Numbered from the stretch's first letter, positions 36,862 through 64,000 are shown. The stretch: 64,000 nt of DNA from Gemmatimonadota bacterium (GCA_039589315.1 JBDHHQ010000008.1:15109-79108); one strand, 5' to 3'. Translations and numbers: made by a program. The notes: generated from the sequence alone by a model not told the origin.

Positions 36862-36924
36862 GGGCCAGGAGGGCCGCCAGCCTGCGCACGCCGCAGCTTT
36901 CCACGCAGACGGGAGGGGTTGAAC

Positions 36925-37122: not shown

Positions 37123-37184
37123 GTCCCACCGGAGGGTCTGCCGGCAGCGCTTCCCTGTACAAGGGACTGGAGGGGGGGTGACCC

Positions 37185-45144: not shown

Positions 45145-45479
45145 TCGGGGCCGACGCCAGGACCCTCAGGACCGGGACGGCAGCCCCATCCAGGCTGGAC
45201 CCTCGCGATCGGTCCCATCTCGACGCTCGTCTGGGGCCGTCCGCCGAGGTCGGGGCCTGGCACGAACCTTCCAACAACAGCGTTCGGCCTCCGCGACCGA
45301 GGCCGGAATCGCTGCGCGACGAAGGCAGGTCCCTCCCTTGGCACGACGCGGTGTCGCGGGGGAGCGACGTTCGTGCTGCGCTCACGCAACGTAGTCGAGG
45401 CGCTGTCGACACTCGAACGCTACGTCCTGGGTCGCGCCGGGGTCGTGCCCCCTGCGTTCGAAGTCAGCAAAAGGAGCTC

Positions 45480-48218: not shown

Positions 48219-48582
48219 GGCTCGTGGGCCACGGAGCCAACCGCCCGGCGGGGCGCCGGTCCAGGGGCTCCGTGGCGGCGCAGCGGGCGATGTCCCCGGT
48301 CTGGGGCCGGTTGCAGGTACACCCTCACGACGCGTTCCAACCGGACGGCCGACGGTCGGTGGAAGCGGCCCTGGAGGACGACTATGTTGGGGCGTTCTCC
48401 TCGGTCCCACACCGATTCGATTCTCCTGTGCCTGATGATATCGGGCGTACGGGGGCGCCGCACCGAATGCACAGTCCCTTCCGGGAGCGCCGTCCCGGCA
48501 CACTCCCGTATGGCTCGAAGCGGGCATGGACCGGGGGTAGGCGTCGCTTGGAGGACGTCGCGCGTGGGGAGGTGCCGGGCGA

Positions 48583-49887
48583 ATGAGCCTGGATCGGCTG
48601 ACCGCATGGCGAGTGGTGGCGCTCGGGGGGTCTCTCGTGGCCGCCCTGGCGGTCACCACGCGTCCAGCCCCGGCTCAGGAAGCGGCGGGGGCCGCCGCCG
48701 TCCGCGTCTTCCTGGACTGCCAGACCCGCGGCTGCGACTTCGACCACTTCCGCCGTGAGATCCGTTTCGTCAACTGGGTCATCGATCGCGCGGACGGTGA
48801 CGTTCACGTCCTGATCACCTCCCAGGCATCGGGGGCGGGGCGCGCTTTCACGTTGGCGTTCATCGGCCTTGGAAGGTTCGAGGGAGATGACGCCGAGCTC
48901 ATCTTCAACGCGTCCGACACGGACACGTCGGACGAGCAGCGGGGGGGGCTTACCCGGGCCATCGAGCTCGGACTGGTGCGTTACGCCAGTCAGACGCCAC
49001 TGGCCGACCGTCTTTCCGTCACGTTTCAGCCCGTCGACTCCGGCGCGGTGCGGCTCACCGCCGGCGAGACGCAGATCTACGACCCGTGGGACTACTGGGT
49101 CTTCCGCATCAGCGCCGGAGGTGAGTACAACGGCGAATCCCAGCAGCGCGGGACGAGCCTGTTCGGGTCTGTCTCGATAAACCGGACCACCGAGGCCCTC
49201 AAGATCCGTCTGAACGCTTCGATCTTCTACCGGGAGGACCAGTTCGATTTCGAGGACGAGACGTTCACCAGCATCGCCCGCTCCAACAGCGCCAGCGCGT
49301 ACGCCGCACACAGCATCGGGGCGCAGTTCGCCACCGGGTTGCGGTGGGATATCTGGTCGTCGACGTTCTCCAACATCGACGTGGCCAACCGCCTGGCCTG
49401 GGCGTTCGAGTACAACGTGTTCCCATACTCGGCGTCGACCCGTCGCGAGCTCACCTTCCTCTATACCGTCGGCGTAAACGACTTCGGGTACCTGGAGACC
49501 ACGATCTACGACAAGCTCGAAGAGCAGGTCGCAGATCACGCGCTGATCGTGTCGTTGGACCTGAAGCAGCCGTGGGGCGATGCGAGGTTCGAGCTCACGG
49601 GGCGACAGTACCTCCACGACGCGTCTCTCTACAGGATCTCGGGCGCCACCGGTGTGGAGGTGCGGCTCTTTCGTGGGCTCTCGTTGGACGTCTCGGGTTG
49701 GTACGCGGCCGTCAGGGACCAACTCTCGCTGCGGGCTGGGGACGCATCGCCCGAAGAGATCCTGCTCTTCAGGCGAGAGCTGGCCACCGACTTCCGCGTG
49801 GGCACGTCGCTCGGCCTGACGTATCGTTTCGGCTCCATCTTCAACAACGTCGTGAACCCCAGGCTGAACGAATTCCGGCGGCCCTGA
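48583..49887 (+). CDS. Signal-peptide protein, candidate outer-membrane beta-barrel (hypothetical)
   Basis: It has a signal-like N terminus (VVALGGSLVAALAVTTRPAPAQE). The C-terminal half has an alternating hydrophobic/polar pattern (FGSVSINR, LNASIFYR, GVEVRLFRGLSLDVSGWYAA, VGTSLGLTYRFG). I recognised no family. Confidence 0.55.
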   Translation: MSLDRLTAWRVVALGGSLVAALAVTTRPAPAQEAAGAAAVRVFLDCQTRGCDFDHFRREIRFVNWVIDRADGDVHVLITSQASGAGRAFTLAFIGLGRFEGDDAELIFNASDTDTSDEQRGGLTRAIELGLVRYASQTPLADRLSVTFQPVDSGAVRLTAGETQIYDPWDYWVFRISAGGEYNGESQQRGTSLFGSVSINRTTEALKIRLNASIFYREDQFDFEDETFTSIARSNSASAYAAHSIGAQFATGLRWDIWSSTFSNIDVANRLAWAFEYNVFPYSASTRRELTFLYTVGVNDFGYLETTIYDKLEEQVADHALIVSLDLKQPWGDARFELTGRQYLHDASLYRISGATGVEVRLFRGLSLDVSGWYAAVRDQLSLRAGDASPEEILLFRRELATDFRVGTSLGLTYRFGSIFNNVVNPRLNEFRRP

Positions 49888-50112
49888 CGGGACCTCCCGA
49901 TCATGGTCCGTCTCTTGCTTCGTTCGTGGGTCGGCCGGCGGTACGGGTCCCGGGGCGGGGGACGGGAATGTCTCCTCCCGGGCAGGAGGATCGCGAGACC
50001 GGCTCCACTGGAGTGTAGTCCGCTGCTCCCGGAGGCAACGCAGGAGAATGAAGGCTCCCGGATGGGGCCCGTTGGGCCGGGGCAGGGCCGGTCCCTAGTC
50101 GGAGGCGCAGCC

Positions 50113-51174
50113 ATGGCACGAACGAACTCCCCGATCGACTCCCGGCGGCCCGTCGTCGTTCCGGATCCCCTCAGCGACGCCGATCTCCTGGCGGCGATCC
50201 GGCAGCATCTTCCTGGGCAGGGCCCGCATGCGATACGGGGGCGGCGTACCTTCAAGCGCCGGCAGGATTGGCGGGGCTACCGCTTGTTCGAGCGCGTGAA
50301 GGTCGACCGCCCGGGCGCGATCCCGCTGGAGCTCTGCCTCAAGTACCTCACGGCGGCCACCGGCTCGGGCCCGGCGACGGGCGCTTCGCAGGAAGCCCGC
50401 GCATACGAGTTTCTCAACGGCCTGCCGAGGGCCGGTGCGGCCCGCTACTTCGGACAGGTCCACATGCCGGAAGCCGGACATTCGATCCTGATTCTCGAGT
50501 ATGTGCACGGTAGGCGCCTCAAGAAGGTCACGAACGCCGACAGCTGGTCTGCGGTGGCCTCGTGGCTCGGCCGACTGCACGCGGAGCTTGCAGGGTCCGG
50601 CCTGAGCCACCGCGAGGATCTGGAGCTGCCCCGGCACGACGAGGGTTTCTTCCTCGGCTGGGCGGAGCGTGCCGCACGGAGCGCCGTGGAGCGCTGCCCG
50701 GAGGCCCGCACCCGGTTGGACGGCCTCCTCCAGGACTACGGCCGGGTCGCGGGGCCGCTCGCGAGCGCGAAGCCGACGCTGGTCCATGGGGAGCTCTATT
50801 GCACGAACATCATGATCCGGAACGACGCTCACCATTGCCGAGTCTGTCCCTTCGACTGGGAGACAGCCGCGATCGGGTGCGGTACGCTCGACCTCGCCTA
50901 CCTCGGGCGCCAGGAGCTGGGAATCGAGCGGGAGGACCTGCTGGCCGCGTACGCCCGCGGCTGGGCCGACGTGGCGGTCCGGCCACCCAGCATGCCGACG
51001 CTACGGATTCAGCATGCCGCCGCGCTCGTGCACGAACGCGCATACCTCCTGTGGACCGCGGTTGTGCACCGGCGGGTGCCGGGGACGAAGATCCTGAAGT
51101 ACCTCGACATCCTGGAGCGTCTCATGACCGACCTGAAGGCGGCAGGTGGCCAGCCGGGGGCGCTTTCCGGATGA
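50113..51174 (+). CDS. Kinase-fold protein K1 (APH/CotS-like, alpha subtype; catalytic loop HGELYCTN, Asp replaced by Glu)
   Basis: It has the beta3-Lys context LCLKYLT, the loop LVHGELYCTN and the metal-binding FDWET. The C-terminal YLDILERL is shared with K3. A GGAGG lies 8 nt upstream of the ATG. Confidence 0.7.
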   Translation: MARTNSPIDSRRPVVVPDPLSDADLLAAIRQHLPGQGPHAIRGRRTFKRRQDWRGYRLFERVKVDRPGAIPLELCLKYLTAATGSGPATGASQEARAYEFLNGLPRAGAARYFGQVHMPEAGHSILILEYVHGRRLKKVTNADSWSAVASWLGRLHAELAGSGLSHREDLELPRHDEGFFLGWAERAARSAVERCPEARTRLDGLLQDYGRVAGPLASAKPTLVHGELYCTNIMIRNDAHHCRVCPFDWETAAIGCGTLDLAYLGRQELGIEREDLLAAYARGWADVAVRPPSMPTLRIQHAAALVHERAYLLWTAVVHRRVPGTKILKYLDILERLMTDLKAAGGQPGALSG

Positions 51175-51199
51175 AGCCGGCCGACGCGGGGTATCGGTA

Positions 51200-52270
51200 G
51201 TGGGCGGCGACGACTGGGCCTCGGTCGAGGGAGTGGGCCGAAGATCCAAGTCCTGGCGGCCTGACGACATCGAGGTGGACGAAGCGACGCTGGGCGCCTC
51301 GGTTGCCAGGGCGCTGACCGAACGGTGCGGCCGGCCCGTACGCGTCACGTCCCTGGTTCGACGGCCCAGTCCCTACGCCACGGTGTTCCCGGCAGACGTC
51401 GTCGAGGTGCGCTTGGCCGACGGGGGTGCGAAGACGCTGTTCGTCAAATACCTGGGGACGGAGGAAGGAGACCACCCCGACAAGCTCGGGCCGGAGCGAG
51501 AGATCGGCCTGTACCGGGACATCCTCGACGGAGAAGGCCTACCGGTCGTGCGATGCTACGGTGCGCCCTGGGACACGCGCCTGGGCCGCTACCAGTTGTT
51601 GCTGGAGCACGTGAACGACTGGAACTTGAAGTACCACGACCTGTCCGCCTGGTACCGGGCCGCCCACGAGCTCGGTCGGCTCCACGCCTGGTTCGCCCAG
51701 CGCGTGCCGATGCTCGAGAAGTGCGGCGTGCTGACCCGGCTGGACGGAGCCTACGTTTGGGGGTGGGCCCGCCGTGCCGGGGAGGAAGCGGCGCGACGGG
51801 GGCCGATCCTCCGCAACCGCCTGCAGGATCTGCTACGTGGGTATCATCCGGTGCCCGCTACCCTGGAGGCGGCGCCCGCCACCCTGGTCCACAACGACTT
51901 GTCGCCGAAGAACGTGATTGCCGACCGCTCCCAGGAGCCCGCCCGCATCTGCCTCGTGGACTGGGAGAGCGCCGGGATCGGCTGCGGTCTCCTCGACCTG
52001 ACCAACCTGTCCTACGGACTGGACGAGGAGGCTCAGACTCGCATGCGGGAGTCGTACCGGACCGGGCTTACCGCCGCGGGGGCCGAGGCTCCGGAGGGCA
52101 ACGACGTGGCCCGTCAGGCCTTGGCGAGCGAGGCCCACAAGGCACTCTGGCGTTTGGCCCACTGCGGCGTGTGGGATCTTCCGGAGAAGGCCGTACACGG
52201 GTTCGCAGCCGAGGCCGAGGCGGCCCTGCGGGCTCTGCTCGCTCCGGTACCGGACCTCGGGGAGCGTTGA
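51200..52270 (+). CDS. Kinase-fold protein K2 (APH/CotS-like, beta subtype; canonical HNDLSPKN / DWE)
   Basis: It has LFVKYLG, EREIGLYRDIL, LVHNDLSPKN and VDWESAGIG. The start is ambiguous (GTG 51146 or GTG 51200). Confidence 0.7.
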   Translation: MGGDDWASVEGVGRRSKSWRPDDIEVDEATLGASVARALTERCGRPVRVTSLVRRPSPYATVFPADVVEVRLADGGAKTLFVKYLGTEEGDHPDKLGPEREIGLYRDILDGEGLPVVRCYGAPWDTRLGRYQLLLEHVNDWNLKYHDLSAWYRAAHELGRLHAWFAQRVPMLEKCGVLTRLDGAYVWGWARRAGEEAARRGPILRNRLQDLLRGYHPVPATLEAAPATLVHNDLSPKNVIADRSQEPARICLVDWESAGIGCGLLDLTNLSYGLDEEAQTRMRESYRTGLTAAGAEAPEGNDVARQALASEAHKALWRLAHCGVWDLPEKAVHGFAAEAEAALRALLAPVPDLGER

Positions 52271-52274
52271 TCCG

Positions 52275-53465
52275 GTGCGAATCCTCGTCGCGGGTGCACT
52301 CACCATCGAGCCCTTCTCCGCCGGCATCGCGTGGGACTGGATCCAGATCGCGGTGGGGTTGGAGAGACTCGGTCACGAGGTGTATTTCGTGGAGGAGCTG
52401 AAGAAGGGTTGGGCCGTCGACCGGGCCGGCCGCCGAAGCTCGTATGCGGGTAGTGTCAATCGTCCCCGCTTCACAGCTCTCGTGGAACGGTTTGGCCTGG
52501 GGGAGCGAGCCTGTCAGATCTACGACCGTGGGCGAGCCACGACGGGTCTGTCTCTGGCGGCCCTGCTGGCGGGGGCCGAGGACGCCGACCTGCTCCTGAA
52601 TGTCTCGGGACACCTCAAGGACCCTCGGATCCTGGAGCTCGTGCCCCGGCGGGCCTACCTGGACCAGGATCCCGTGTACACGCAGCTGTGGGTCGCGGAA
52701 TACGGGAAGGACCTGGGATTCGAAGATCACGACGTCTTCTTCACCGTCGGCCTCGACGTCGGTACGCCAGCGTGTCCCATCCCGGACGCCGGTGTGAGCT
52801 GGCATCCCATGCTGCCTCCCGTCGTCGTCGACTTCTGGGAGCCATCCGACTCCGGTGAGACTGGCCACTTTACCACTGTGGCCTCTCTTACCGGCTACGC
52901 GGAGCTCGGCTTCGCCGGACGGAGCTACGGCTCCAAGCACGCCGAGTTCCGCAGGTTCGCCGATCTTCCGAGACGGGCAGGCCAACCCCTGGAGGTGGCG
53001 CTCAAGGCCTTCCGCGAGGACGACCCTGTGATCCGGGAGATGCGGGCGGGCGGGTGGAAGATCAGCGACGGCAGCGAGGTGGACGGGCTGGACAAGTACC
53101 AGGCCTACATCGCGGCCTCTCGCGCCGAGATCGGCATCGCCCAGCATGCCTACGTGGCCGGCCGATCCGGATGGTTCAGCGACAGGTCCACCCACTATCT
53201 CGCTACGGGCAAGCCGGTATTGGCTCAGGCCACGGGCTTCGAGCGCCACCTCCCCGTGGGGCGGGGACTTCTGTCCTTTGCCACGGCCGACGAGGCGCGC
53301 GGGGGCATCGAAGCCATCAACGCGGACTACCGAGCCCACTGCGAGGCCGCTCGGGAGCTGGCTGAAGTGCACCTGGACTACCGGGCCATCCTCCCGTCGT
53401 TCCTGGACGCGTGCATGTCCGCCCGGCCGCACGGGACTGCAGGCACGGGGAGCCCGGCGTCATGA
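52275..53465 (+). CDS. GT-B/CgeB-like paralog G1a (uncharacterised family)
   Basis: It has N-terminal MRILVAG...LERLGHEVYFVEEL. The family motifs are RRAYLDQDPVYTQLW, FFTVGLDVGTPACPIP, WHPMLPPV and SKHAEFRRFADLP. The C-terminal block is GWFSDRSTHYLATGKPVLAQATGFERHLPVGRGLLSF. Confidence 0.65.
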   Translation: MRILVAGALTIEPFSAGIAWDWIQIAVGLERLGHEVYFVEELKKGWAVDRAGRRSSYAGSVNRPRFTALVERFGLGERACQIYDRGRATTGLSLAALLAGAEDADLLLNVSGHLKDPRILELVPRRAYLDQDPVYTQLWVAEYGKDLGFEDHDVFFTVGLDVGTPACPIPDAGVSWHPMLPPVVVDFWEPSDSGETGHFTTVASLTGYAELGFAGRSYGSKHAEFRRFADLPRRAGQPLEVALKAFREDDPVIREMRAGGWKISDGSEVDGLDKYQAYIAASRAEIGIAQHAYVAGRSGWFSDRSTHYLATGKPVLAQATGFERHLPVGRGLLSFATADEARGGIEAINADYRAHCEAARELAEVHLDYRAILPSFLDACMSARPHGTAGTGSPAS

Positions 53466-54643
53466 CGCGAGTCGTGGTGGCGACCACCAACTGGAGTCGA
53501 CGGCCGGAGTTCGGAGGGCTTTCCTGGGTGCCCCTGCAGTACGTACTGGGGCTCCGGGACCTGGGCGTCGCCGCCTTCTGGATCGATCACCTCAAGGGCG
53601 TGGATCCGTTCCGGAAGGATCACACCGTGGACTACCTGCGGGCTCGGTTCCACGACCTCACCCGGAGCTTCGGGCTGGAAGCGGTCTCGGGCATCGTCTA
53701 TGACCACGGGCGCGCTCATTTCGGCCTACCCGCCGACGCGCTGAGGCGGCTCGCCAATGAGGCCGACCTGCTCCTGACGTTGGGCAAGCCGCCCCCCACC
53801 TCGACGCCACTCCTGACGATCGCGCGGCGCGCGTACGTGGACATCGACCCCGGTTTCACTCAGGTCTGGGCCCAGCAGCGGGACATCGGCCTCGGACCAT
53901 ACGACTACTTCTTCACCGTGGGGCAAAACGTCGGCTCCCCGGAGTTCCCCATCGACACGGGTGAGGTCTCGTGGCGGCCGATCCTGCCGCCGGTCCACCT
54001 TCCCTCGTGGCCGGCCCGAATCGACGATCGCTGCCGTCGCTTCTCGACAGTCGCGGACTGGCGGGGGAGTCAGACGGCTGAGCTGGACGGCGTGTGCTAT
54101 GGTACGAAGCGCTCGGAGTTCATCCGGTTCCTGCAGGTGCCCCTCCAGACCGGATCTCGCATAGACCTGGCCCTTTGCATCGGTCAGCAGGATCACGTGG
54201 ACCTCGGCTTGCTGACCGGCCACGAGTGGCGGGTGCGAGATCCGTATCAGTACGCCGGTGACGCGTTCTCGTACCGGGAGTTCGTGCAGCGCTCACGGGG
54301 TGAGTTCGGGGTGGCTAAGCACGGCTATGTGCGGTCGGACTCCGGCTGGTTCAGTGACCGCACCGCATGCTACCTGGCCTCCGGCAAACCCGCCCTCGTG
54401 CAGTCGACCGGCTTCGAGGAGCGCGTGCCCACCGGCGAAGGACTCCTGACCTTCAGCGACCCGCCCGGGGCCGTGGCGGCCCTCCGTGAGGTCGAGGAGG
54501 ACTACCTCCGACACTGCCACGCCGGCCGAGCGTTCGCTGAACGGCACCTCGACGCCGGTCGGATACTGACGGGCCTGCTGGAGCACGTAGGTTTGGCGCC
54601 CGGCGAGGGCGGCGTGACGAGGGCGGAAGGCCAGGCCCGATGA
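53462..54643 (+). CDS. GT-B/CgeB-like paralog G2a (uncharacterised family)
   Basis: There is an ATGA overlap with G1a. The motifs are RRAYVDIDPGFTQVW, FFTVGQNVGSPEFPI, WRPILPPVHLPSWPARID, TKRSEFIRFLQVP and GWFSDRTACYLASGKPALVQSTGFE. Confidence 0.65.
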   Translation: MTRVVVATTNWSRRPEFGGLSWVPLQYVLGLRDLGVAAFWIDHLKGVDPFRKDHTVDYLRARFHDLTRSFGLEAVSGIVYDHGRAHFGLPADALRRLANEADLLLTLGKPPPTSTPLLTIARRAYVDIDPGFTQVWAQQRDIGLGPYDYFFTVGQNVGSPEFPIDTGEVSWRPILPPVHLPSWPARIDDRCRRFSTVADWRGSQTAELDGVCYGTKRSEFIRFLQVPLQTGSRIDLALCIGQQDHVDLGLLTGHEWRVRDPYQYAGDAFSYREFVQRSRGEFGVAKHGYVRSDSGWFSDRTACYLASGKPALVQSTGFEERVPTGEGLLTFSDPPGAVAALREVEEDYLRHCHAGRAFAERHLDAGRILTGLLEHVGLAPGEGGVTRAEGQAR

Positions 54644-55620
54644 GCCCGGACGCGGAGACCTTGCGCCGCCTCCTCGAGGGAGCGTTCCTTCCCACCCTGT
54701 CGGGAGGGCAGGATCTCGACGGATTCACCTATGCGCCCTTCGAGGGCGCAGGATGGTACCGCGCGTACACAGTGGACGTTCGGTTCCGGGATGGCGCCGC
54801 CCACCGGCTCTTCCTCAAGGACCTCGGGGCGCCGAGGGGCGGCAAGGGAGACATGGTTGGCCGCAGGGAGCGCGAGCGCTGCGTCTACGAACGTCTCCTA
54901 CAGCCAGAGCGTGACGGAACGGCCCGTCTCTATGGGGTCGAGTGGGATCCAGAGGGGGCACGCTATTGGCTCCTGCTCGAGTACGTCGAGGGCACCCCGG
55001 TGAGGCAGCTCGATTTCGAGACCTGGCGCGGCGCGGCCGCCTGGCTCGCCCGGTTCCAGGCGGGGTTCAGCGCCCACACGGGGAGGGCCGCCCGGTGTGA
55101 CCTGGTCCGGCACGACGAGCCCTTTTTCCTGGACGTGGCCCGTGGAGCCGTCGACGCGGTGACCCTGTGGTGCCGAGCGGCAGGAGCTCGGGTACTCGAG
55201 CTCCTGGATGGCTACGACCGCCATCTCTCCCGACTCCTCGAGCAGCCGCCCACCCTGGTTCACGGTGCCTTTCTTCCCATGCAGATCCTGGCCGTGGGTG
55301 ACGATGGTGGGCGGTTGTGCCCCGTCGACTGGGAGCTGGCTGGCTTGGGCCCACCGCTCTACGACCTCGGCTTCCTGGCGTACGGGTTCAAGGGCGCGGA
55401 GCGGCGCTCCCTCCTGGCCGCGTACCGGGAAGAAGCCACGCAGCTGGGCTCGGCGGTACCGGAAGACCTGTCCAGGCGAGTCGCCTGCGTGGAGGTGCAC
55501 CGAACGCTCGCCGCCCTCGGACAGTCAGTGGAGCGGGCCTACGACGACGAGGCGATCGGCGAGTACCTGGACATCCTGGAGGGACTGTTGGCCAGGATCG
55601 GCGCAGAGGAGGTGGTCTGA
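54640..55620 (+). CDS. Kinase-fold protein K3 (alpha subtype; degenerate catalytic loop HGAFLPMQ, predicted pseudokinase)
   Basis: There is an ATGA overlap with G2a. It retains LFLKDLG and VDWELAGLG. The catalytic Asp and Asn positions are Ala and Gln. It has the C-terminal YLDILEGL. Confidence 0.7.
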   Translation: MSPDAETLRRLLEGAFLPTLSGGQDLDGFTYAPFEGAGWYRAYTVDVRFRDGAAHRLFLKDLGAPRGGKGDMVGRRERERCVYERLLQPERDGTARLYGVEWDPEGARYWLLLEYVEGTPVRQLDFETWRGAAAWLARFQAGFSAHTGRAARCDLVRHDEPFFLDVARGAVDAVTLWCRAAGARVLELLDGYDRHLSRLLEQPPTLVHGAFLPMQILAVGDDGGRLCPVDWELAGLGPPLYDLGFLAYGFKGAERRSLLAAYREEATQLGSAVPEDLSRRVACVEVHRTLAALGQSVERAYDDEAIGEYLDILEGLLARIGAEEVV

Positions 55621-55709
55621 GTGGCCACCGGATCCTGGTGCTCCGACGGGCGCGCCCCCAGCAGGCGGCACGCTTCCACGGCTTCGACCCCGGGCACGGG
55701 TCGATCTCC

Positions 55710-56900
55710 ATGAGGATCGTGCTCGGCGCCGTCGTCTCCCGTTTCCTTCCCGGCGAAGTCCTGCACCGAGCCCAGTACGTGGAGGGGCTACGCCGCCTGG
55801 GCCATGACGTGATCTGGATCGAGGAGCTGGAGCCGAAGGGCTGTGTCGACGGCCGAGGATGGCCCACGGACTATGCGCACTGCGCCAATACCGAGGGATT
55901 CCGTCGCGCCATGGCGTACTTCGGCCTGGAGGAGCGGTCCGCCCAGATCTACGACGGAGGCCGAGCCACGGTAGGGCTCGGCCTCGCTGGGGTTCTCGAC
56001 GAGGTGGGCTCGGCGGACCTCCTCCTCAACTTCTCGGGGCACGTGCGTCACCCGGAGATCCTGGACCGGATTCCCAGGCGCGCCTACCTGGATTCCGACC
56101 CCGTATTCACCCAGCTGTGGAATGACCAATACGAGGAAGACCTGGGCTTCGACGCCCACCATGTCTTCTTCACCCGGGGCGCGAATCTCGCCGCTGGTCT
56201 CTGTCGGCTTCCCGACTGCGGTCTCGACTGGCAACCCTACATGCCGCCGCTCGTCTTGGACTTGTGGCCGGCCCTCACCGCGCCGAGCCCTGGCCCGTTC
56301 ACGACGATCGCGGCTTGGGGGCGGTACGGAGACCTGTTCCACGAAGGCGACTGGTATCGGTCGAAGACGTCCGAGTTCCGCCGGTTTGCCGATCTGCCGC
56401 GGGCCTCCCCCCACGAGTTCCGTCTGGCGCTCTCCGGCCGGGAGTACGATCCGGAGACTGCCGATCACCTGGTCACCCGGGGCTGGCGGCTCTTGGAGGG
56501 CGGAGCCCTGGGGTCCGTCGACGACTACGTGGCGTTCATTCGCCACTCCGGTGCGGAGATCGGGGTGGCCAAGCACGCGTACGTCCGGGCTCGAACCGGT
56601 TGGTTCAGCGAGCGGAGCACGCAGTACCTGGCAAGCGGCAAGCCCGTGTTGGTGCAGGACACGGGACTGGAGGGGGTGCTCCCTACGGGCCGGGGATTGG
56701 TGACCTTCGAGACCCTCGACGAGGCCGCAGCCGGCGCGGCCGAGATCATGGGCAGCTACCCGGTACACGCTCGGGCGGCCCGGGAGCTGGCCACGGCGTG
56801 CTTCGACCACGAGAAGCTGCTGGACGAGTTGCTCCAGCGATGCTTCTCTGAGGTCGAGGGCTCACCGCCGCCGAGACCGAGCGGAGGGGCCGTCCGATGA
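55710..56900 (+). CDS. GT-B/CgeB-like paralog G1b
   Basis: Its N terminus MRIVLGAVV...LRRLGHDVIWIEEL aligns with G1a. The motifs are RRAYLDSDPVFTQLW, WQPYMPPL, SKTSEFRRFADLP and GWFSERSTQYLASGKPVLVQDTG. Confidence 0.65.
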   Translation: MRIVLGAVVSRFLPGEVLHRAQYVEGLRRLGHDVIWIEELEPKGCVDGRGWPTDYAHCANTEGFRRAMAYFGLEERSAQIYDGGRATVGLGLAGVLDEVGSADLLLNFSGHVRHPEILDRIPRRAYLDSDPVFTQLWNDQYEEDLGFDAHHVFFTRGANLAAGLCRLPDCGLDWQPYMPPLVLDLWPALTAPSPGPFTTIAAWGRYGDLFHEGDWYRSKTSEFRRFADLPRASPHEFRLALSGREYDPETADHLVTRGWRLLEGGALGSVDDYVAFIRHSGAEIGVAKHAYVRARTGWFSERSTQYLASGKPVLVQDTGLEGVLPTGRGLVTFETLDEAAAGAAEIMGSYPVHARAARELATACFDHEKLLDELLQRCFSEVEGSPPPRPSGGAVR

Positions 56901-58081
56901 CCGCGAGTCGCGAGGCCCGCGAGGGGTGGGTGGAGGGGCGCAACACGCCCAGGGTCATCGTCTCTACCCGCAACACCAGCCTCGTGCCCGAGTTCGGCGG
57001 GTCGTTCTGGGTGCGGCTGCAGTACCTCTTGGGCTTCCGGGACCTGGGTGTCGATGCCTATTGGATCGACCGTTTGGACCCGCCCGATCCCGGCCGGCAG
57101 GCTCACAGCATCGAGTACATGATCCGGCGGTTCGCCTCCTCTCTCGAGGCCTTCGGCCTGGGAGATCGTTTCGCTGTCCTCTACGAGCGAGAGGGACAGT
57201 GCTTCGGCGGGGACCAGACGGACGTACGCGAGCGAGTGGACGGGGCAGACGTCCTGATCAACATCGGCGGATTCCTCCCCCAGGGGTCGCTACTCACCCG
57301 GATCCCACGGCGGGCCTACGTGGACGTCGATCCCGGCTTCACCCAGATCTGGGCTCACGACGTCGACGTCTGGCTCGAGCAGCACACGTGCTTCTTCACC
57401 GTCGGTCAGAACGTGGGAGCCCCCGAGTTCCCCATCCCCACGCGTGACATCCCCTGGCGCCCCATCCTTCCGCCGGTCCACCTGCCGTCTTGGCCGGCTC
57501 GCATCGATGAGCGCAGCCGCCGCTTCTCGACGGTGGCCGACTGGCGTGGATCTCAAGACGCGCTGTTCGAGGGCGAGTATTACGGCACGAAGCGCTCCGA
57601 GTTCGTCCACTACCTGCACGTACCGTTACGGGCGGGTCGGCGCATCGAAGTCGCGCTCTGCATCGGTCAGCAGGATCACGAGGATCTGGGTCTGTTGCTG
57701 GACCACGACTGGCGAGCACGCGAGGCATACCGGTACGCCGGCGACCCATTCGCCTATCGCGAGTTCATCCAGTACTCCCGGGCCGAGTTCGGGATCGCCA
57801 AGCACGGCTACGTCAAGTCGAACTCGGGCTGGTTCAGCGACCGCACCGCCTGCTACCTGGCCTCGGGCAAACCAGCGATCGTGCAGTCGACCGGGTTCGA
57901 GCATCGACTGCCCACGGGGCAGGGGCTGCTCACCTTCCGGAGCGTGGACGAGGCTGTCGCTGCCATCCAGGACGTCGAAGAGCACTACCTGGACCACTGT
58001 GCCGCGGCCCGCTCCTTCGCTGAAGAGCACCTCGACGCGGCGAAGACCCTCGTGTACATGCTCGAGCAGCTGGAAGGGTGA
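56897..58081 (+). CDS. GT-B/CgeB-like paralog G2b
   Basis: There is an ATGA overlap with G1b. It is near-identical to G2a over WRPILPPVHLPSWPARIDERSRRFSTVADWRGSQ. The other motifs are RRAYVDVDPGFTQIW and GWFSDRTACYLASGKPAIVQSTGFE. Confidence 0.65.
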   Translation: MTASREAREGWVEGRNTPRVIVSTRNTSLVPEFGGSFWVRLQYLLGFRDLGVDAYWIDRLDPPDPGRQAHSIEYMIRRFASSLEAFGLGDRFAVLYEREGQCFGGDQTDVRERVDGADVLINIGGFLPQGSLLTRIPRRAYVDVDPGFTQIWAHDVDVWLEQHTCFFTVGQNVGAPEFPIPTRDIPWRPILPPVHLPSWPARIDERSRRFSTVADWRGSQDALFEGEYYGTKRSEFVHYLHVPLRAGRRIEVALCIGQQDHEDLGLLLDHDWRAREAYRYAGDPFAYREFIQYSRAEFGIAKHGYVKSNSGWFSDRTACYLASGKPAIVQSTGFEHRLPTGQGLLTFRSVDEAVAAIQDVEEHYLDHCAAARSFAEEHLDAAKTLVYMLEQLEG

Positions 58082-59097
58082 CGATGGCTGAGGCCGCGGG
58101 TCCGATCCGCGTGGACGAGGATCTCCTCCGGAGGCGCGTGGAGGGCGTGCTTCGGGAGACGCTCGGTCGGCACCGGTCGGTGCGCGACCTGAGGCGCGTT
58201 CCCAGCGAGTTCGCCACCGTGTTCCCGGCCGACGTGCTCTACGTGACCTTGGACGACGGGCGGGAGCTGCGGCTGTTCCTCAAGCACCTGGGTGCCAGCG
58301 ACCATCCGGAGAAGAAGAAGCCCGAAAGGGAGGCCATCGTATACCGGGAGCTGCTGGCGGGATCAGATCTGCCGGTGCCGGCTTTCTACGGTGCCGCGTG
58401 GAACCCCGACGGCGAACGGCAGGAGCTCTACCTCGAGTTCATCGACGACTGGTCCCTGAAGTACCAACCCATCGACCAGTGGTACCTGGCCGCAAGCGTC
58501 CTCGCCGAGTTCCACGTCGCGATGGCGGCTCGGGACGAGGAGCTCACTCGGTGCGACGCCCTGCAGTCCCTGGATGCGCCCTACTTTCGGACCTACGCGA
58601 ATCGGGCCCGTAACCAGCTGATGGGGCACACGCCCGCACTGCTCAACGCGTTGGACGCGGTGCTGTCTGGGTACGACCGGGTCGTTCGAGAGCTCGTCCG
58701 CGCGACGCCGACGTTGGTGAACGCCGACCTCTCTCCCCGCAACGTCCTGGCCGACCGGTCGAGGGCGCCGGCACGGGTGTGCTTCATAGACTGGGAGAGC
58801 GCAGGTAGGGGGGCTGGCGCTCTCGACATCGCTCACCTCGCCTACGGGCTCGAAGGCGAACCCAGGAAGCTGATGCTGGACGCCTACTTCGGTGGCCTGG
58901 CAGGAACCCCCCTCGATCCCGGCTCACCCCTTCGGCGCCGCCGCCTGGTGGCGGCCGCCGAGGCTCACAAGGCGTTGTACCGCATCGCCCGCTGCAACTA
59001 CCGGGGCTATTCCGAGCGGACGGTGACCAAGTTGGTCGCCGAAGCGCGCACCAGCTCGCGAGAGCTCGAGCAGGCCTCCGGCGAGGAGTCGGACTGA
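58078..59097 (+). CDS. Kinase-fold protein K4 (beta subtype; loop NADLSPRN, His replaced by Asn)
   Basis: There is a GTGA overlap with G2b (alternative ATG at 58084). It has LFLKHLG, EREAIVYRELL, LVNADLSPRN and IDWESAGRG. The N-terminal ATVFPADV block is shared with K2. Confidence 0.7.
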   Translation: MTMAEAAGPIRVDEDLLRRRVEGVLRETLGRHRSVRDLRRVPSEFATVFPADVLYVTLDDGRELRLFLKHLGASDHPEKKKPEREAIVYRELLAGSDLPVPAFYGAAWNPDGERQELYLEFIDDWSLKYQPIDQWYLAASVLAEFHVAMAARDEELTRCDALQSLDAPYFRTYANRARNQLMGHTPALLNALDAVLSGYDRVVRELVRATPTLVNADLSPRNVLADRSRAPARVCFIDWESAGRGAGALDIAHLAYGLEGEPRKLMLDAYFGGLAGTPLDPGSPLRRRRLVAAAEAHKALYRIARCNYRGYSERTVTKLVAEARTSSRELEQASGEESD

Positions 59098-60080
59098 TGT
59101 CCCGACCGCACGTCGCCACCCGTTCCCTGGATCACGAGCGCGGTCTCCTGGAAGAGATTCTGACCGGCTGGTCGGGGGACGAGATCCGGATCCGCGCGCT
59201 GGACCGCCGGGCCTGCGAATTCGCCGGGAGGTGGCCGTCCCAGATCCTGGACGCGGAGCTCGAGAGCGGCGCTCGCCTCTCGGTCATACGGAAGCAGGTC
59301 GGCGTGAGCGGCCATCCGGACAAGTCATATCCCGACAAGGAGATCCGGATGTACGCGCGGGTGCTGCTGGGGGGGTCCCTGCCCGTGCCCCGGTACTTCG
59401 GCGCGAGGTGGGACGAGGCGGCGCAGACGCACGAGCTCTATCTCGAATACGTGGACGCCTTGTCCCTCAAGTACCAGGGCATCGCTCTGTGGTACAGGGC
59501 GGCGGAGGCCATCGGCCAGCTCCACGCGCACTTCGCGCACCGCCTCGACGACCTCAGGGCGGAGGAGGCGCTTCAAACCCTGGACGCTGCGTACTTTCGA
59601 CGTTGGGCGGAGCGGGCCCGCGTCGAGCTCGACGCGCACCTCCCGGATCTGAGCCCCGAGCTCGCCACGCTGCTGTCCGGGTACGACGACGTGGTCGTGC
59701 TCCTGGCTGAGGCGCAGCGGACCCTGGTGCACAACGACCTGGGGGCGCGCAACGTGGTGGTGGACGCCGGACGGGCCCCCCCGCGCGTGTGCATCGTCGA
59801 CTGGGAGAACGCGGGTATCGGGTGCGGCGTGGTCGATCTCACCCACCTGACCTACGGGTTGGCGGAAGACGAGCGCCGCCGGATGTGCCGGGCGTACTTC
59901 GCGAAGCTCGAGGGCTCGCCTCTGGCCGTCGGTGAAGTCGCTGGCGCGGACCGGCTGGCCGCGGCGGGGGAGGTGCATCGCGTGGTCTATCGGCTCGGAC
60001 GATGCCGCCGCCGAGGTTACAGCCGGGAGGCGGTGCTGGGCCTGCTCGCACACGCCGTCCGATTCCGCAATCGCATCTGA
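59097..60080 (+). CDS. Kinase-fold protein K5 (beta subtype; canonical HNDLGARN / DWE)
   Basis: There is a 1-nt TGATG overlap with K4. It has LVHNDLGARN and VDWENAGIG. The SLKYQ block is shared with K4, and K2 has the similar NLKYH. Confidence 0.7.
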   Translation: MSRPHVATRSLDHERGLLEEILTGWSGDEIRIRALDRRACEFAGRWPSQILDAELESGARLSVIRKQVGVSGHPDKSYPDKEIRMYARVLLGGSLPVPRYFGARWDEAAQTHELYLEYVDALSLKYQGIALWYRAAEAIGQLHAHFAHRLDDLRAEEALQTLDAAYFRRWAERARVELDAHLPDLSPELATLLSGYDDVVVLLAEAQRTLVHNDLGARNVVVDAGRAPPRVCIVDWENAGIGCGVVDLTHLTYGLAEDERRRMCRAYFAKLEGSPLAVGEVAGADRLAAAGEVHRVVYRLGRCRRRGYSREAVLGLLAHAVRFRNRI

Positions 60081-60150
60081 GGAGAAGCGTGGACGCTCGG
60101 TACAACTTCCCGGACATCGCGGACGTCGTGACTCGCTCTGCCGGTCGGTC

Positions 60151-61305
60151 ATGAAGATCATCGTGTCGTCCAACTTCTCACACTGTGCCCACCGTCCAGG
60201 GGCCCTGGACAACCGCGTGGCCCACGTACGTGGGCTGGCGAGCCTCGGTCACGAGGTCTACGTGATAGAGGACGTGGCTCCCGAGAGGTGCTTCGACGCT
60301 AGATACGAGCCTGTTCGGTTCGAGGACTGGGCCGGCCGCGACCGCTTCCGCTCTGTCGTCGGCGCGCTCGGTCTGCGGACCAGGTCCGCGCTCATCTACG
60401 ACCGGGGTCGGGCGACGTACGGGATGTCTCTGGCCGAGGTGGAGTCTCACGCGAGGTCGGCCGATCTCCTCGTCAGCATCGCCAGCGCCCTGGATACGGA
60501 GTCCGTGCGAGACGTGGTCCCGTGCCGGGTCTATGTCGACACGGCGCCGGCCAAGGTCCAGGTCTACCACGCTCAGTACGGGATAGACTACGGCTTCGAG
60601 CACTATCATCACTTCTTCACGTTCGGATTGAACATCGGGTCCGCGGACTGTCCGATCCCCACCTGTGGCGTGCAGTGGCGGGGAATCCTGCCTCCCGTGG
60701 TCCTGGCCGATTGGCCCCGGGCAACGTCGCTCGAAGGCGACCGCTTCACGACCGTATCGAGCTGGGCCGGAAGCAAGCACACGTTCGACTACGCGGGGAT
60801 CTACTCGGGAGACAAGGCGGACGAGTGGAGACGATTCGCCGAGCTCCCGGGGAAGACCGACCAGACGCTCGAGATCGCGTTGAACATCCATCCCGCCTAC
60901 CGGGAGGACATCGAGCTGCTGGAGGGAAACGGATGGGTCCTGCGGCCTGCGGCCGAGCTCGATTCCGTCGAGACCTACCGGACGTACCTCAGCGAATCCC
61001 GGGCGGAGCTCAGCGTCGCCAACGCCCGCTACGTGCGCTTCAACACCGGGTTCTTCGGTGACCGGACGGCTCGCTACCTCGCCTGCGGCAGGCCGGCCCT
61101 GATCCAGCGGACCGGGTTCGATGGCCAGCTGCCGGTGGGGGAAGGACTCCTGACGTTCGAGACGCTGGAGGAGGCCGCCGCAGGTATCCAGGAGATCAAC
61201 GGGCGCTACGCCCGCCACGCCGAGGCGGCCCGGAGCATCGCGGAAGAGTACTTCGACGCCGAGCGCGTGCTCTCCCGAGTGCTCGCGGAGATCGGTTGTC
61301 CATGA
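60151..61305 (+). CDS. GT-B/CgeB-like paralog G3a
   Basis: It has N-terminal MKIIVSS...LASLGHEVYVIEDV. The motifs are CRVYVDTAPAKVQVY, FFTFGLNIGSADCPIP, WRGILPPV, GDKADEWRRFAELP and GFFGDRTARYLACGRPALIQRTGF. Confidence 0.65.
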   Translation: MKIIVSSNFSHCAHRPGALDNRVAHVRGLASLGHEVYVIEDVAPERCFDARYEPVRFEDWAGRDRFRSVVGALGLRTRSALIYDRGRATYGMSLAEVESHARSADLLVSIASALDTESVRDVVPCRVYVDTAPAKVQVYHAQYGIDYGFEHYHHFFTFGLNIGSADCPIPTCGVQWRGILPPVVLADWPRATSLEGDRFTTVSSWAGSKHTFDYAGIYSGDKADEWRRFAELPGKTDQTLEIALNIHPAYREDIELLEGNGWVLRPAAELDSVETYRTYLSESRAELSVANARYVRFNTGFFGDRTARYLACGRPALIQRTGFDGQLPVGEGLLTFETLEEAAAGIQEINGRYARHAEAARSIAEEYFDAERVLSRVLAEIGCP

Positions 61306-63113
61306 GCAGCGAGCGCCAAGCGCCCGCCGACCTCGCGTTGATGCGCCGCGCCCTCGTCATGGCGCGGCCGTACTGGCCTCACATCGTCGCGACGTTCCTG
61401 ATCACGTTGGTCGCGACCCCCATCGCCCTCCTGCAGCCACTGCCGCTCAAGATCGCCGTCGACAGTGTCATTGGCGACGACGCCCTCCCGGGCTTTCTGG
61501 AGCCTTGGGTCCCACGGGCCTTTTCGTCCTCGACGTTGGGCCTGCTGGTCTTCTCGGCAGCCCTCGTCGTGCTGGTCGAGCTTCTGGCACGCCTGCACAA
61601 GCTGGTGACCGCGGTGCTCCAGATCTACACGTCCGAACGGCTCGTCCTGGACGTGCGCTCGCAGCTCTTCCGGCACGCGGAGGGCCTGTCGCTCTCCTAC
61701 CATGACGCCAGGGGCTCGGCCGACGCGTTGTACCGGCTCCAGTCGGACGCTCCGTCCATCAACGCCATCGCGCTGGGAGGGGTCGTCCCGCTCATTCGCT
61801 CCATCGTCACGTCGATCGCCATGCTGTACGTCACCGCGCGCATCGACCTGACCCTGACTCTCGTGGCGGTCACGGTGTTTCCGGTCACGCTCATGGTGAC
61901 GCTCATCGCCAAGCGGCGATTCCGGAGCCGGTGGCGCGGCGTGAAGGAAATCGAGAGCTCTGCGCTGGCCGTGGCGCAAGAAGTGCTCACGAGCCTCCGG
62001 GTGGTGAAGGCATTCGGGCAGGAGGAGAGAGAGCGCCGGAGATTCGAGCGTGTGTCGCAACAGGGGATCGGAGCCCGGATCCGGGTCCACATCGCCCACA
62101 GCGGATTCAGCATCCTGGCGGGGTTGATCCGGGCCGGCGGCACGGCGGCGGTCCTGTTCTTGGGCGTGCTGCACGTCCTGGATGGGACGCTCACCTTGGG
62201 CTCGCTGTTGCTCGTGATGTCCTACCTGGCCCAGCTCTACGGTCCGCTACTCGCGCTGGGGCAGCAGTTCACGGCTCTGCAGCGCTCGTTCGCCAGCGCC
62301 GAGCGGGTGTTCGAGTTCCTGGACCGGGAGCCCGACGTGCAGGAGGCACCGAACCCACGCCGCCTGGAGAGGGCACGCGGAGCCTTCGTATTCGACGGTG
62401 TCTCGTTCTCGTACGGGGAGGAGACGGTGCTCGACGGGTTCGAGCTGTCGGTGCCTGCTGGCGCTCGCGTGGGTGTCGCAGGCCGAACCGGGGCGGGGAA
62501 GACGACCCTGATGAATCTTCTCGCTCGGTTCTACGATCCGACCAGTGGTCGTATCCTGCTGGACGACGTCGACATCCGGGAGTTCAAGGTCTCGGATCTA
62601 CGGGGGCAGTTCGGCATCGTGCTGCAGGAGCCGGTCCTGTTCTCCACCACGGTCGCGGAGAACATCGCGTACGGGTGCCCGACCGCGTCGAGGTCCGAGA
62701 TCGTGGGTGCGGCCAGGGCGGCCAACGTGCACGACTTCCTCGAGGGGCTGCCCAACGGCTACGAAACCGAGGTGGGTGAGCGGGGGATGCGCATGTCCGG
62801 CGGAGAGCGACAGCGCATCGCTCTGGCCCGGGCCTTCCTGAGGGACGCACCGATCCTGATCCTCGACGAGCCCACCAGCTCGGTGGACATCGAGACCGAG
62901 AGCTCGATCATGGAGGCCATGCAGCGGCTCATGCGGGGGCGCACGACCTTTCTCATCGCCCATCGTCTGCAGACCCTGGAGGCGTGCGACCTGCTTTTGG
63001 TCATGGACGGTGGGAGGCTGATCTCGGTGACTACGAAGGTAGAGGAGGCCCTGGGCGCCGTGCAGCAGGCAGGGGCGTTGGACGCTGCAACCGAAGCCGA
63101 CGGCCAGCCGTGA
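61302..63113 (+). CDS. ABC exporter, fused permease/ATPase half-transporter (MsbA-like type I exporter)
   Basis: It has six N-terminal TM segments, Walker A (GRTGAGKTT), the signature MSGGERQR, Walker B (ILILDEPTS) and an H-loop (IAHRL). It has no C39 peptidase domain. There is an ATGA overlap with G3a. Confidence 0.85.
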   Translation: MSSERQAPADLALMRRALVMARPYWPHIVATFLITLVATPIALLQPLPLKIAVDSVIGDDALPGFLEPWVPRAFSSSTLGLLVFSAALVVLVELLARLHKLVTAVLQIYTSERLVLDVRSQLFRHAEGLSLSYHDARGSADALYRLQSDAPSINAIALGGVVPLIRSIVTSIAMLYVTARIDLTLTLVAVTVFPVTLMVTLIAKRRFRSRWRGVKEIESSALAVAQEVLTSLRVVKAFGQEERERRRFERVSQQGIGARIRVHIAHSGFSILAGLIRAGGTAAVLFLGVLHVLDGTLTLGSLLLVMSYLAQLYGPLLALGQQFTALQRSFASAERVFEFLDREPDVQEAPNPRRLERARGAFVFDGVSFSYGEETVLDGFELSVPAGARVGVAGRTGAGKTTLMNLLARFYDPTSGRILLDDVDIREFKVSDLRGQFGIVLQEPVLFSTTVAENIAYGCPTASRSEIVGAARAANVHDFLEGLPNGYETEVGERGMRMSGGERQRIALARAFLRDAPILILDEPTSSVDIETESSIMEAMQRLMRGRTTFLIAHRLQTLEACDLLLVMDGGRLISVTTKVEEALGAVQQAGALDAATEADGQP

Positions 63114-63245
63114 AGATCATCCACCCAGGGGCCGAAACCGGAATGGCGAATGCGTTCGGCGGACCTGCTCGGTGAGGCGTAGCACTCCAGCGGGGCCGAG
63201 GCCTCGCGGCCCCGCGCCGAAGAAGGGGTCGGCGTGCGACGCGGG

Positions 63246-63998
63246 TTGAGAGTGATCGTCTCGAGCGTGTTCTCACGCACGCGATACGCGGAGCTCCCCG
63301 GAGATCGCGACGCCCGGATGGCCTTCGCTGTGGGCTTCCGCGCGTTGGGGCACGACGTGTTCGTCGTGGAGGAGGTGGAAGAGGGTCAATGCCTGGATTC
63401 AAGTGGCCAGATCGTGCCCTTCGACGAGTGGCGCGGGCGTGATCGCTTCCTGGCGACCATGCGGGAGTATGGCTTCGCCGATCGATGCTGCCTCGACTAC
63501 CGCGGCGGACAGGCGACGGTCGGCATGAGTCGGCACGCGCTGCGGGGTGCCGCGAGCGGTGCGGATCTGCTCCTGGCCGTCGGCGGGCGCCTCCGCAACC
63601 CTGAGCTTCTCGAGGCCGCCGGGCACCGCGCCTACGTGGATATCAACCCCGGCAAGACGCAGGTCTACGCGTTCGAGTACGACGTCGACTACGGACTCTC
63701 CGCTTTCGACTCGCACTTCAGCGTGGGGCTCGCGATTGGCCAGCCCCAGTGTCCACTCCCGACCGGGGGCTTCCAGTGGCATCCCCTCGTGATGCCGGTC
63801 GTCCTCGACCGCTGGCGCCCGAACGCCGCTTCAGGTCGAGCCTTCACGAGCATTACGAGCTGGAACCGCAAGCACGACTTTGACTTTCAGGGCGTCGCCT
63901 CTGGAGACAAGGTGGAGCAATGGCTGCGGTTCGTCGACCTTCCGAACCGCACCGGCCAGAGCATGGAGATCGTGCTCCCGGTTCGGGAGATCAGCGCG
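63246..63998 (+). CDS. GT-B/CgeB-like paralog G3b, 3' end cut by window edge (not in supplied ORF track because no stop is reached)
   Basis: I translated it by hand from 63234. The translation reads (V)RRG-LRVIVSSVFS...FRALGHDVFVVEEV...HRAYVDINPGKTQVY...HFSVGLAIGQPQCPLP...WHPLVMPVV...FTSITSW...GDKVEQWLRFVDLP, which is collinear with G3a. The start is TTG 63246 or GTG 63234. Confidence 0.6.
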   Translation, partial: MRVIVSSVFSRTRYAELPGDRDARMAFAVGFRALGHDVFVVEEVEEGQCLDSSGQIVPFDEWRGRDRFLATMREYGFADRCCLDYRGGQATVGMSRHALRGAASGADLLLAVGGRLRNPELLEAAGHRAYVDINPGKTQVYAFEYDVDYGLSAFDSHFSVGLAIGQPQCPLPTGGFQWHPLVMPVVLDRWRPNAASGRAFTSITSWNRKHDFDFQGVASGDKVEQWLRFVDLPNRTGQSMEIVLPVREISA

Positions 63999-64000
63999 CG

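Follow-up and report, generated by a model that had tools for sequence, protein, structure and literature searches.

The 64,000-nt stretch of DNA analysed here (the window; Gemmatimonadota bacterium, GCA_039589315.1, JBDHHQ010000008.1:15109-79108; G+C about 69%) ends in a block of + strand genes that includes an ATP-binding cassette (ABC) exporter. The block encodes five kinase-fold proteins (K1 to K5) and six paralogs of about 390 amino acids (aa), named G1a, G2a, G1b, G2b, G3a and G3b. It opens with the genes of a TIM barrel fused to a family 2 glycosyltransferase (GT2) and of a 434-aa protein with a signal-like N-terminus (Table 1). Coordinates are positions in the window, and L-numbers denote loci from other contigs or genomes. 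We regard the block as a variant of an established type of system, glycan assembly coupled to ABC export, whose components here are what appears to be an undescribed GT-B family and unusual APH kinases.

Third-position GC shows coding open reading frames (ORFs) on the + strand without a break from about 45081 to the end of the window, in agreement with the preliminary description of this DNA, which had placed all genes from 50113 onwards on that strand. The six start/stop overlaps listed there (ATGA at 53462, 54640, 56897 and 61302, GTGA at 58078, TGATG at 59097) are exact in the junction sequences and support a translationally coupled block. A promoter and terminator scan, otherwise uninformative, gave no terminator-like hairpin on the + strand between 44900 and 64000. 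Since the genes are co-directional and joined by start/stop overlaps and no + strand terminator-like site intervenes, the region from 45351 to past 64000 is, judged from its sequence, a single operon. The unit does not begin at 50113 as first proposed, because two more + strand genes (45351–48218 and 48583–49887) belong to it. It very likely starts at 45351 with the TIM-barrel/GT2 membrane fusion, as in other phyla orthologues with 53–58% identity to this fusion adjoin G genes and the ABC exporter.

Table 1. Genes assigned to the operon (TM, transmembrane; TMD-NBD, transmembrane domain and nucleotide-binding domain; AF2, AlphaFold model).
Feature	Position	Strand	Remarks
TIM barrel (GH2_C-like, clan GH-A)/GT2 fusion, C-terminal TM helices, 955 aa	45351..48218	+	start codon uncertain
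434-aa secreted protein, family not assigned	48583..49887	+	signal-like N-terminus
K1, APH-fold kinase, loop HGELYCTN	50113..51174	+	PF01636 E 8e-10, 39.4 bits
K2, APH-fold kinase, loop HNDLSPKN	51146..52270	+	PF01636 E 8e-10, 39.3 bits; start uncertain, conserved portion from ~51250
G1a, divergent GT4-like GT-B glycosyltransferase (predicted)	52275..53465	+	AF2 model and Foldseek
G2a, G1a paralog	53462..54643	+	start overlaps G1a stop (ATGA)
K3, APH-fold protein, loop HGAFLPMQ, probable pseudokinase	54640..55620	+	PF01636 E 4e-13, 50.2 bits
G1b, GT-B paralog	55710..56900	+	46% identity to G1a; PF13524 23.9 bits
G2b, GT-B paralog	56897..58081	+	61% identity to G2a; start overlaps G1b stop (ATGA)
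K4, APH-fold kinase, loop NADLSPRN	58078..59097	+	PF01636 E 3e-8, 34.1 bits
K5, APH-fold kinase, loop HNDLGARN	59097..60080	+	PF01636 E 3e-12, 47.3 bits
G3a, GT-B paralog	60151..61305	+	PF13524 28.7 bits
ABC exporter, fused TMD-NBD, MsbA/NdvA/PglK type	61302..63113	+	PF00664 and PF00005
G3b, GT-B paralog, cut by window edge	63246..64000	+	extends to ~64400 in contig L001

The G proteins and the kinase-fold proteins

The six G proteins are related over their full length with 31–61% pairwise identity, which bears out the earlier count of six paralogs. With regard to the three subfamilies proposed at that stage, G2 is clear (61%) and G1 moderate (46%), whereas the 41% between G3a and G3b is barely above the 40% found between G3 and G1. 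The shared motif RRAY.D.DP.FTQ.W stands with the restriction that it is degenerate in G3a and G3b. Profile searches reached the family only marginally. PF13524 (Glyco_trans_1_2, CgeB-like; gathering cutoff 25 bits) matched the C-terminal domain only, in G3a (28.7 bits), G1b (23.9) and G2b (23.1), and Pfam left G1a and G2a without any match. PF00534 and the Glyco_transf_4 profiles matched none of five G proteins at E ≤ 0.1, and NCBIfam gave no match to the G proteins. The family thus appears to be properly covered by no Pfam or NCBIfam model.

Structure prediction was more informative. With a pLDDT (predicted local distance difference test) of 94.3 and a pTM (predicted template modelling score) of 0.92, the G1a model computed by AlphaFold (AF2) from a 43-sequence alignment is of high confidence, and the top 50 PDB matches found for it by Foldseek all have the GT-B fold, with GT4 enzymes leading. 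This supports the fold that had been suspected from the two ends of the proteins. The best matches are the retaining GT4 enzymes ManT, tll1591, BGluT, MshA, GlgM, PimA, BshA and HepE (10–16% identity, E 1e-12 to 1e-8, TM-score 0.5–0.6). Neither a sequence search with G1a nor the G-family profile gave anything significant against the PDB, and the profile found no GT4 chain there at E < 0.5.

According to the alignment R126, Y128, D130, P133, Q137, K221, E285, R304, T320 and G321, among others, are invariant in the family. As all aligned G paralogs of the window keep the invariant residues, none of them looks degenerate. Family-specific are the invariant motifs R126-x-Y-x-D130, Q137 and D303-R304. 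The hhalign program yielded no usable alignment between the G profile and a bona fide GT4 sequence, so that statements on the E-x7-E motif are by eye only. For this comparison the G motif GWFSDRSTHYLATGKPV was set against the GT4 motif E-x7-E...G-x-PV, using a GT4 protein of locus L014 (WENSPLVIQEAFAARRPV). In this alignment Lys221 and Thr320-Gly321 would occupy the positions that contact the diphosphate in GT4 enzymes. The G proteins thus resemble PimA, MshA, BshA, GlgM, ManT and HepE in their two-Rossmann-domain GT-B fold, in the N-terminus MRILV...G...LGHEV and, by eye, in the Lys after C-beta1 and the T-G loop at the diphosphate site. They differ from these enzymes in the low identity given above, the missing PF00534 match, an apparent Gly/His pair in place of E-x7-E, their own invariant motifs and their occurrence as sets of tandem paralogs.

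With G1a as query, more than 1,200 homologues were retrieved. The best 120 of them (E < 1e-131, 53–79% identity) come from metagenome-assembled genomes (MAGs) of Gemmataceae, Chloroflexota, Solirubrobacterales and Tepidisphaeraceae and are annotated as ‘hypothetical’ or as generic ‘glycosyltransferase’. An exhaustive search of 50%-identity cluster representatives with the G profile gave 4,428 matches at E ≤ 1e-3, of which 1,053 reached E ≤ 1e-30. The names of cluster members that were looked up all read ‘hypothetical protein’. In this 50% library the G domain also occurs naturally fused to an APH kinase (P0146) and to a second G domain (P0138), and there are G+GT4, G+GT2 and G+GT2+methyltransferase proteins (P0171, P0225, P0232, P0270). 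These fusions tie the family to glycan synthesis and to kinases. No match to G1a was obtained by tblastn in 72,556 plasmids, and no account of the family or the cassette was found in the literature. Taking fold and sequence together, we assign the G proteins to a putative, so far undescribed GT-B family.

All five K proteins exceed the gathering threshold of PF01636 (APH, 23.2 bits) with E between 3e-8 and 4e-13, as expected from the five kinase-fold paralogs described before, and show 30–45% mutual identity. As had been stated, all five keep the beta3 Lys and the metal-binding D-W-E; the alphaC Glu is likewise present in each of them. The H-N-D-L-x-x-x-N loop attributed to all of them is present in K2 and K5 only, which alone have the canonical HxDxxxxN catalytic loop. 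In K4 the His is replaced by Asn with Asp and Asn kept, in K1 Glu takes the place of the catalytic Asp, and in K3 Asp is changed to Ala and Asn to Gln. Among 62 G-adjacent kinases from other genomes HGE[FL]Y..N is the commonest loop and is kept across phyla, occurring also in the kinases of most G-G-G-K-YdjC loci. To our knowledge, no APH-fold kinase with Glu for the catalytic Asp has been characterised. In K3 orthologues the Asp position is variable (A/S/T/G/H/D) and the Asn is often Gln, which suggests that this class is a non-catalytic partner, probably a pseudokinase. Kinases with the H-G-E-[FL]-Y-x-x-N loop (L014–L087, e.g. L021, L033, L043, L068 and L077) usually have a YdjC deacetylase gene after them.

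The AF2 model of K1 (pLDDT 87.9) is nearest to small-molecule kinases, namely APH(2'')-IIIa, PsiK, APH(3'), Mph, Cph and LicA, and not to protein kinases or WaaP. Capreomycin phosphotransferase was the sole sequence-level match of a K2/K4/K5 profile (E 1e-4), and K1 alone as query gave no sequence match. NCBIfam matches of the kinases were far below threshold, and PF06293 (WaaP/Kdo kinase) was not among their Pfam matches at E ≤ 0.1. K2 has orthologues of 41–45% identity that immediately precede G1 in L004, L007, L008, L010 and L011.

Fusion protein, 434-aa protein and exporter

The first gene of the operon matches PF02836 (E 4e-10, residues 111–328), PF00535 (E 3e-31) and PF13632, and its product has hydrophobic segments at residues 688–729 and 864–912. 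As read from the sequence, the N-terminal, cytoplasmic TIM barrel keeps the GNE and AEIG motifs of clan GH-A. Orthologues with 53–58% identity stand beside ABC and G genes in L005, L007, L008, L012 and L013. In other phyla no partner accompanies the ABC and G genes more constantly than this fusion. The protein is probably an initiating or polymerising synthase. Synthases rarely carry a fused glycosidase or transglycosylase, and the combination is reminiscent of cyclic-glucan synthase. As a side observation, this fusion occurs in at least four phyla at 53–58% identity, always adjoining the ABC exporter.

In the 434-aa protein an N-terminal, signal-like hydrophobic segment covers residues 6–24. 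No Pfam, NCBIfam or PADLOC match was obtained for it, and it is conserved at the same position only in L026, a Gemmatimonadota MAG (85% identity). By its sequence character it is possibly an outer-membrane beta-barrel. A different barrel-like ORF of about 500 aa follows the ABC gene in Nitrospira loci.

The exporter has the PF00664 plus PF00005 architecture and is 54–56% identical to the cassette ABC gene products in other phyla. With 420.7 bits it remains below the cutoff of 602 of the MsbA equivalog TIGR02203, and likewise below the cutoff of every other NCBIfam exporter equivalog, including NdvA/ChvA (partial scores) and HepA. Apart from the signal-like segment of the 434-aa protein, predicted membrane segments are confined to the GT2 fusion and to the ABC protein. 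As the K and G proteins have no hydrophobic segments, they are taken to be cytoplasmic.

Conservation in other phyla and genes past the window

In a scan with one genome per species, at least 597 species have a G-family relative; nearly all genomes among the species listed are MAGs. Those species cover more than ten phyla and belong to Chloroflexota, Actinomycetota, Gemmatimonadota, Planctomycetota, Verrucomicrobiota, Binatia and Nitrospirota, and further to Acidobacteriota, Deinococcota, cyanobacteria, Myxococcota, Margulisiibacteriota and proteobacteria. With the window proteins as references, ORFs were labelled in 87 loci; the remaining ORFs were clustered, and counts were made over 82 non-redundant loci. 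There, G genes almost always occur as two to four tandem paralogs, and APH kinases are found in most loci. Further neighbours are the ABC exporter (37 loci), a YdjC carbohydrate deacetylase (30), the GH2C-GT2 fusion (29), methyltransferases (9), sulfotransferases (8), adenylylsulfate (APS) kinase (4) and GT2 and GT4 genes. Two gene arrangements are seen repeatedly, GH2GT2-ABC-(K..)-G-G(-G) and (GT2/GT4/sulfotransferase/methyltransferase)-G-G-G-K-YdjC.

Around orthologues of G1a a common core, consisting of the GH2C-GT2 fusion, the ABC exporter, three to five APH domains and at least two G genes, is present in L004 (a contig from ENA), L005 (a Solirubrobacterales MAG) and L007 (a Chloroflexota MAG). 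The alternating order of kinase and G genes pointed out in the preliminary description is found exactly in L026 with about 80% identity (range 66–89%); L004 has the same parts in a different order. Elsewhere the ratio is not kept: for two to five G genes, a locus may have no kinase or as many as five kinase domains. The alternation is therefore a lineage-specific elaboration and does not define the system. The window arrangement elaborates a smaller conserved core.

G1a, G2a, G2b, the ABC protein and the GT2 fusion share 53–60% identity with orthologues from other phyla, which are closer to them than the paralogs of the operon are to each other. In detail, G1a is 54–58% identical to orthologues in other phyla, G2a 57% to that in L007, and G2b 56–60% to those in L007, L008 and L012. 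G3a is 50% identical to a gene product of L004 and 45% to those of Nitrospira-locus genes adjoining the ABC gene. A variant locus was observed in Nitrospira and Methylococcales MAGs (L022, L038, L041, L053, L057, L059), with one G3-like gene, several APH-like kinases of about 476 aa, another GT-B-like protein, an ABC exporter and a barrel-like ORF. In four Solirubrobacterales MAGs (L021, L033, L043, L080) sulfotransferases and APS kinase flank the G-G-G-K-YdjC sets, so that sulfation recurs apart from the lineage of the window.

Three longer contigs with an identical ABC protein (L001–L003) show the region past 64000. On L001 the earlier view could be extended: G3b is complete and is followed on the same strand by a sulfotransferase gene. 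Positions 10043–16247 of this contig (about 64481–70685 in window coordinates) hold the sulfotransferase and then a convergent gene set coding for a GT2, two Methyltransf_13/14 proteins (C-methyltransferase-like), an epimerase/dehydratase-like short-chain dehydrogenase/reductase (SDR) and a glucose-1-phosphate cytidylyltransferase (TIGR02623, 347 bits, cutoff 300). This set suggests a cytidine diphosphate (CDP)-derived, possibly C-methylated, sugar. The lack of nucleotide-sugar synthesis genes noted before holds within the window but is an edge effect, since the cytidylyltransferase and SDR genes follow directly beyond it. A YdjC homologue was found neither in the window nor in L001.

Proposed function and alternative explanations

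The operon probably encodes a cytoplasmic line for the assembly, decoration and export of a glycan, either an oligosaccharide or a glycolipid. We favour this reading because of the GT-B fold, the G-domain fusions, the APH matches, the conserved neighbours, the cytoplasmic nature of the K and G proteins and the sugar genes downstream. It agrees in outline with the surface-glycan or phospho-modification system proposed before, the function itself being a prediction. Folds, family memberships, operon structure, conservation and gene fusions are observed. From them we infer what the substrates are, in which order the steps proceed, what kind of product is made and which donor nucleotide is used, CDP-hexose genes being located nearby.

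At the inner membrane face, the membrane-anchored fusion of GH-A TIM barrel and GT2 would start or polymerise a sugar backbone. The six soluble, GT4-like GT-B paralogs would then add sugars, with adjacent paralogs probably forming pairs or complexes. Kinases of APH fold and small-molecule type would transfer phosphate to sugar hydroxyls, either while the glycan grows or once it is complete, with K2, K4 and K5 presumably being active, K1 acting as a Glu variant and K3 probably as non-catalytic partner. The sulfotransferase just past the window would probably add sulfate in this lineage, where a CDP-derived branched sugar may also be incorporated, and many relatives would use de-N-acetylation and methylation. 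Transport across the cytoplasmic membrane would be due to the MsbA/NdvA/PglK-type ABC half-transporter, and in the diderm host the 434-aa secreted protein may pass the product through the outer membrane.

A precedent is found in E. coli O9a, where a cytoplasmically built glycan is modified by the kinase/methyltransferase terminator WbdD and then exported by an ABC transporter; GT-B assembly in the cytoplasm (there by the GT4 mannosyltransferases WbdA/B/C), a kinase acting on the glycan and ABC export are common to both (PMC3482155). In contrast to O9a, the exporter here is of the fused MsbA type (PF00664) and not of the Wzm/Wzt ABC-2 type, several APH-type kinases are present, neither a WbdD-like coiled-coil ruler nor a carbohydrate-binding extension of the nucleotide-binding domain was seen, and monoderm hosts are included. 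Besides O9a, the closest analogies are the Nod-factor and cyclic-glucan (Cgs-NdvA/ChvA) pathways. They share a GT2 with few transmembrane helices, cytoplasmic tailoring as in the relatives of the cassette and a dedicated ABC exporter; Cgs also has a glycosidase-type domain fused to the synthase, and the NdvA/ChvA models score partially. A NodA-type acyltransferase is not present here, however, and the G and K families are absent there. We treat the resemblance to O9a, Nod-factor and cyclic-glucan systems as analogy and in no case as membership.

Several observations weigh against a glycan assembly line. No polyprenyl-phosphate priming transferase was seen in 45351–64000 or on L001, and the cluster has no Wzm/Wzt-type transporter. 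Some loci are without a kinase within 10 kb, so phosphorylation would not be obligatory for the G enzymes. In the by-eye alignment Gly299 and His307 stand at the two glutamate positions of the GT4 E-x7-E motif, and because of this apparent replacement the use of nucleotide sugars is not assured. Finally, a cross-phylum identity of 53–60% is unusually high for surface-polysaccharide genes, and a defined small product therefore fits better than a variable capsule.

This last point leads to the alternative of a secreted glycosidic small molecule of aminoglycoside-like or Nod-factor-like type, tailored or made harmless to the producer by the kinases and expelled by the ABC protein as an efflux pump. 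Besides the high conservation, which suggests a defined product, the proximity of the K1 model to the antibiotic kinases APH(2''), APH(3'), Mph and Cph fits this explanation, and in relatives the few-helix GT2, YdjC, sulfotransferase with APS kinase, methyltransferase and ABC protein parallel NodC, NodB, NodH/NodPQ, NodS and NodIJ. Yet the Pfam and NCBIfam matches of the operon include no scaffold genes, such as those for a cyclitol, an aminotransferase or an acyltransferase, a set of five kinases with two degenerate members would be odd for self-resistance, and the plasmid search gave no match. We consider it unlikely, also noting that it overlaps with the glycan line, the main differences being how large the product is and what role it has. 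The APH fold also includes the anomeric sugar kinases NahK, AmgK and maltokinase Mak. The K proteins could correspondingly provide sugar-1-phosphates, to be used by the G enzymes directly or after activation by a nucleotidyltransferase, and a gene for the latter is nearby. The apparent loss of the two GT4 glutamates in favour of the invariant D303-R304 (by eye) and the existence of a G-kinase fusion protein point in this direction. Such a pathway is nevertheless quite improbable in view of the variable K:G ratio with many multi-G loci having no kinase within 10 kb, the K3-class proteins without catalytic residues, the aminoglycoside and macrolide kinases as nearest structural neighbours, and Lys221 and T320-G321, which by eye match the diphosphate-binding elements of GT4 enzymes.

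A protein-directed modification on the lines suggested for CotS/CotSA, with surface, S-layer or spore-coat-like proteins as targets, would explain APH/CotS-type kinases beside GT-B proteins. This arrangement resembles the pairing of the GT4 protein CotSA with CotS in B. subtilis, and the C-terminal similarity to PF13524, the CgeB-type domain, is in line with it, although weak and mostly at or below the cutoff. There is, however, no gene for a target protein and no sporulation gene or context, the hosts are non-sporulating phyla, both diderm and monoderm, the constant partners are the synthase-like GT2 fusion, the ABC exporter and the sugar deacetylase YdjC, and there are fusions of G domains with GT2 and GT4 modules of the polysaccharide type. 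Protein modification is thus very unlikely. Practically no weight is left for an ordinary waa-type core cluster of lipopolysaccharide (LPS) or for a recent junk duplication on this contig, and both were rejected. GT-B enzymes, kinases and an MsbA-like ABC protein provide a superficial likeness to LPS inner-core phosphorylation by WaaP, WaaY and KdkA, where kinases also modify a GT-B-built glycan before flipping by an ABC protein (MsbA). But PF06293 and GT9 are not among the Pfam matches, lipid A genes are missing, the MsbA score is below the cutoff, and the cassette occurs in monoderm Actinomycetota and Chloroflexota; the initial judgement that the waa and CotS/CotSA systems are partial analogies stands, neither protein set being orthologous to waa or CotS proteins. 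The identities of 31–61% among G and 30–45% among K paralogs speak for old duplications and not for recent junk; moreover, orthologues elsewhere are closer than neighbours in the operon, and L026 keeps the gene order. An anti-phage defence function was dropped as well, since PADLOC gave no match for K1, K2, K3, G1a, G2a, G3a and the 434-aa protein.

Within the favoured glycan assembly and export line, a more far-reaching proposal is possible but doubtful: the core cassette, made up of the TIM-barrel/GT2 fusion, the ABC exporter and tandem G paralogs, either lacking or including Glu-type or degenerate APH kinases, might make one defined, conserved phospho-oligosaccharide or glycolipid and might have passed by horizontal transfer into more than ten phyla, most of them uncultured, with about 55% identity. 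The G proteins might then be a new glycosyltransferase family of obligate hetero-oligomers with non-standard donor recognition, and the HGE kinases might represent a catalytic type new to the APH fold. If this were true, the product could be a chemically new signal or envelope component.

The family is present in hundreds of soil and water species, including Solirubrobacterales, Chloroflexota, Gemmatimonadota, Planctomycetota, Nitrospira, Binatia, Acidobacteriota and cyanobacteria. If the product were identified, thousands of genes now called ‘hypothetical’ would gain a function and the list of GT-B families would grow by a new one; an envelope or secreted glycan shared by poorly cultured phyla could also come to light. 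For kinase enzymology the Glu-for-Asp kinases and the conserved degenerate ones are relevant. Unrelated to the cassette are the genes of ordinary metabolism upstream on the same strand (31744–38774), which code for a 3-hydroxyacyl-CoA dehydrogenase, an acyl-CoA dehydrogenase, a Glu/Leu dehydrogenase, serine hydroxymethyltransferase (SHMT) and an NAD(P)HX repair enzyme.

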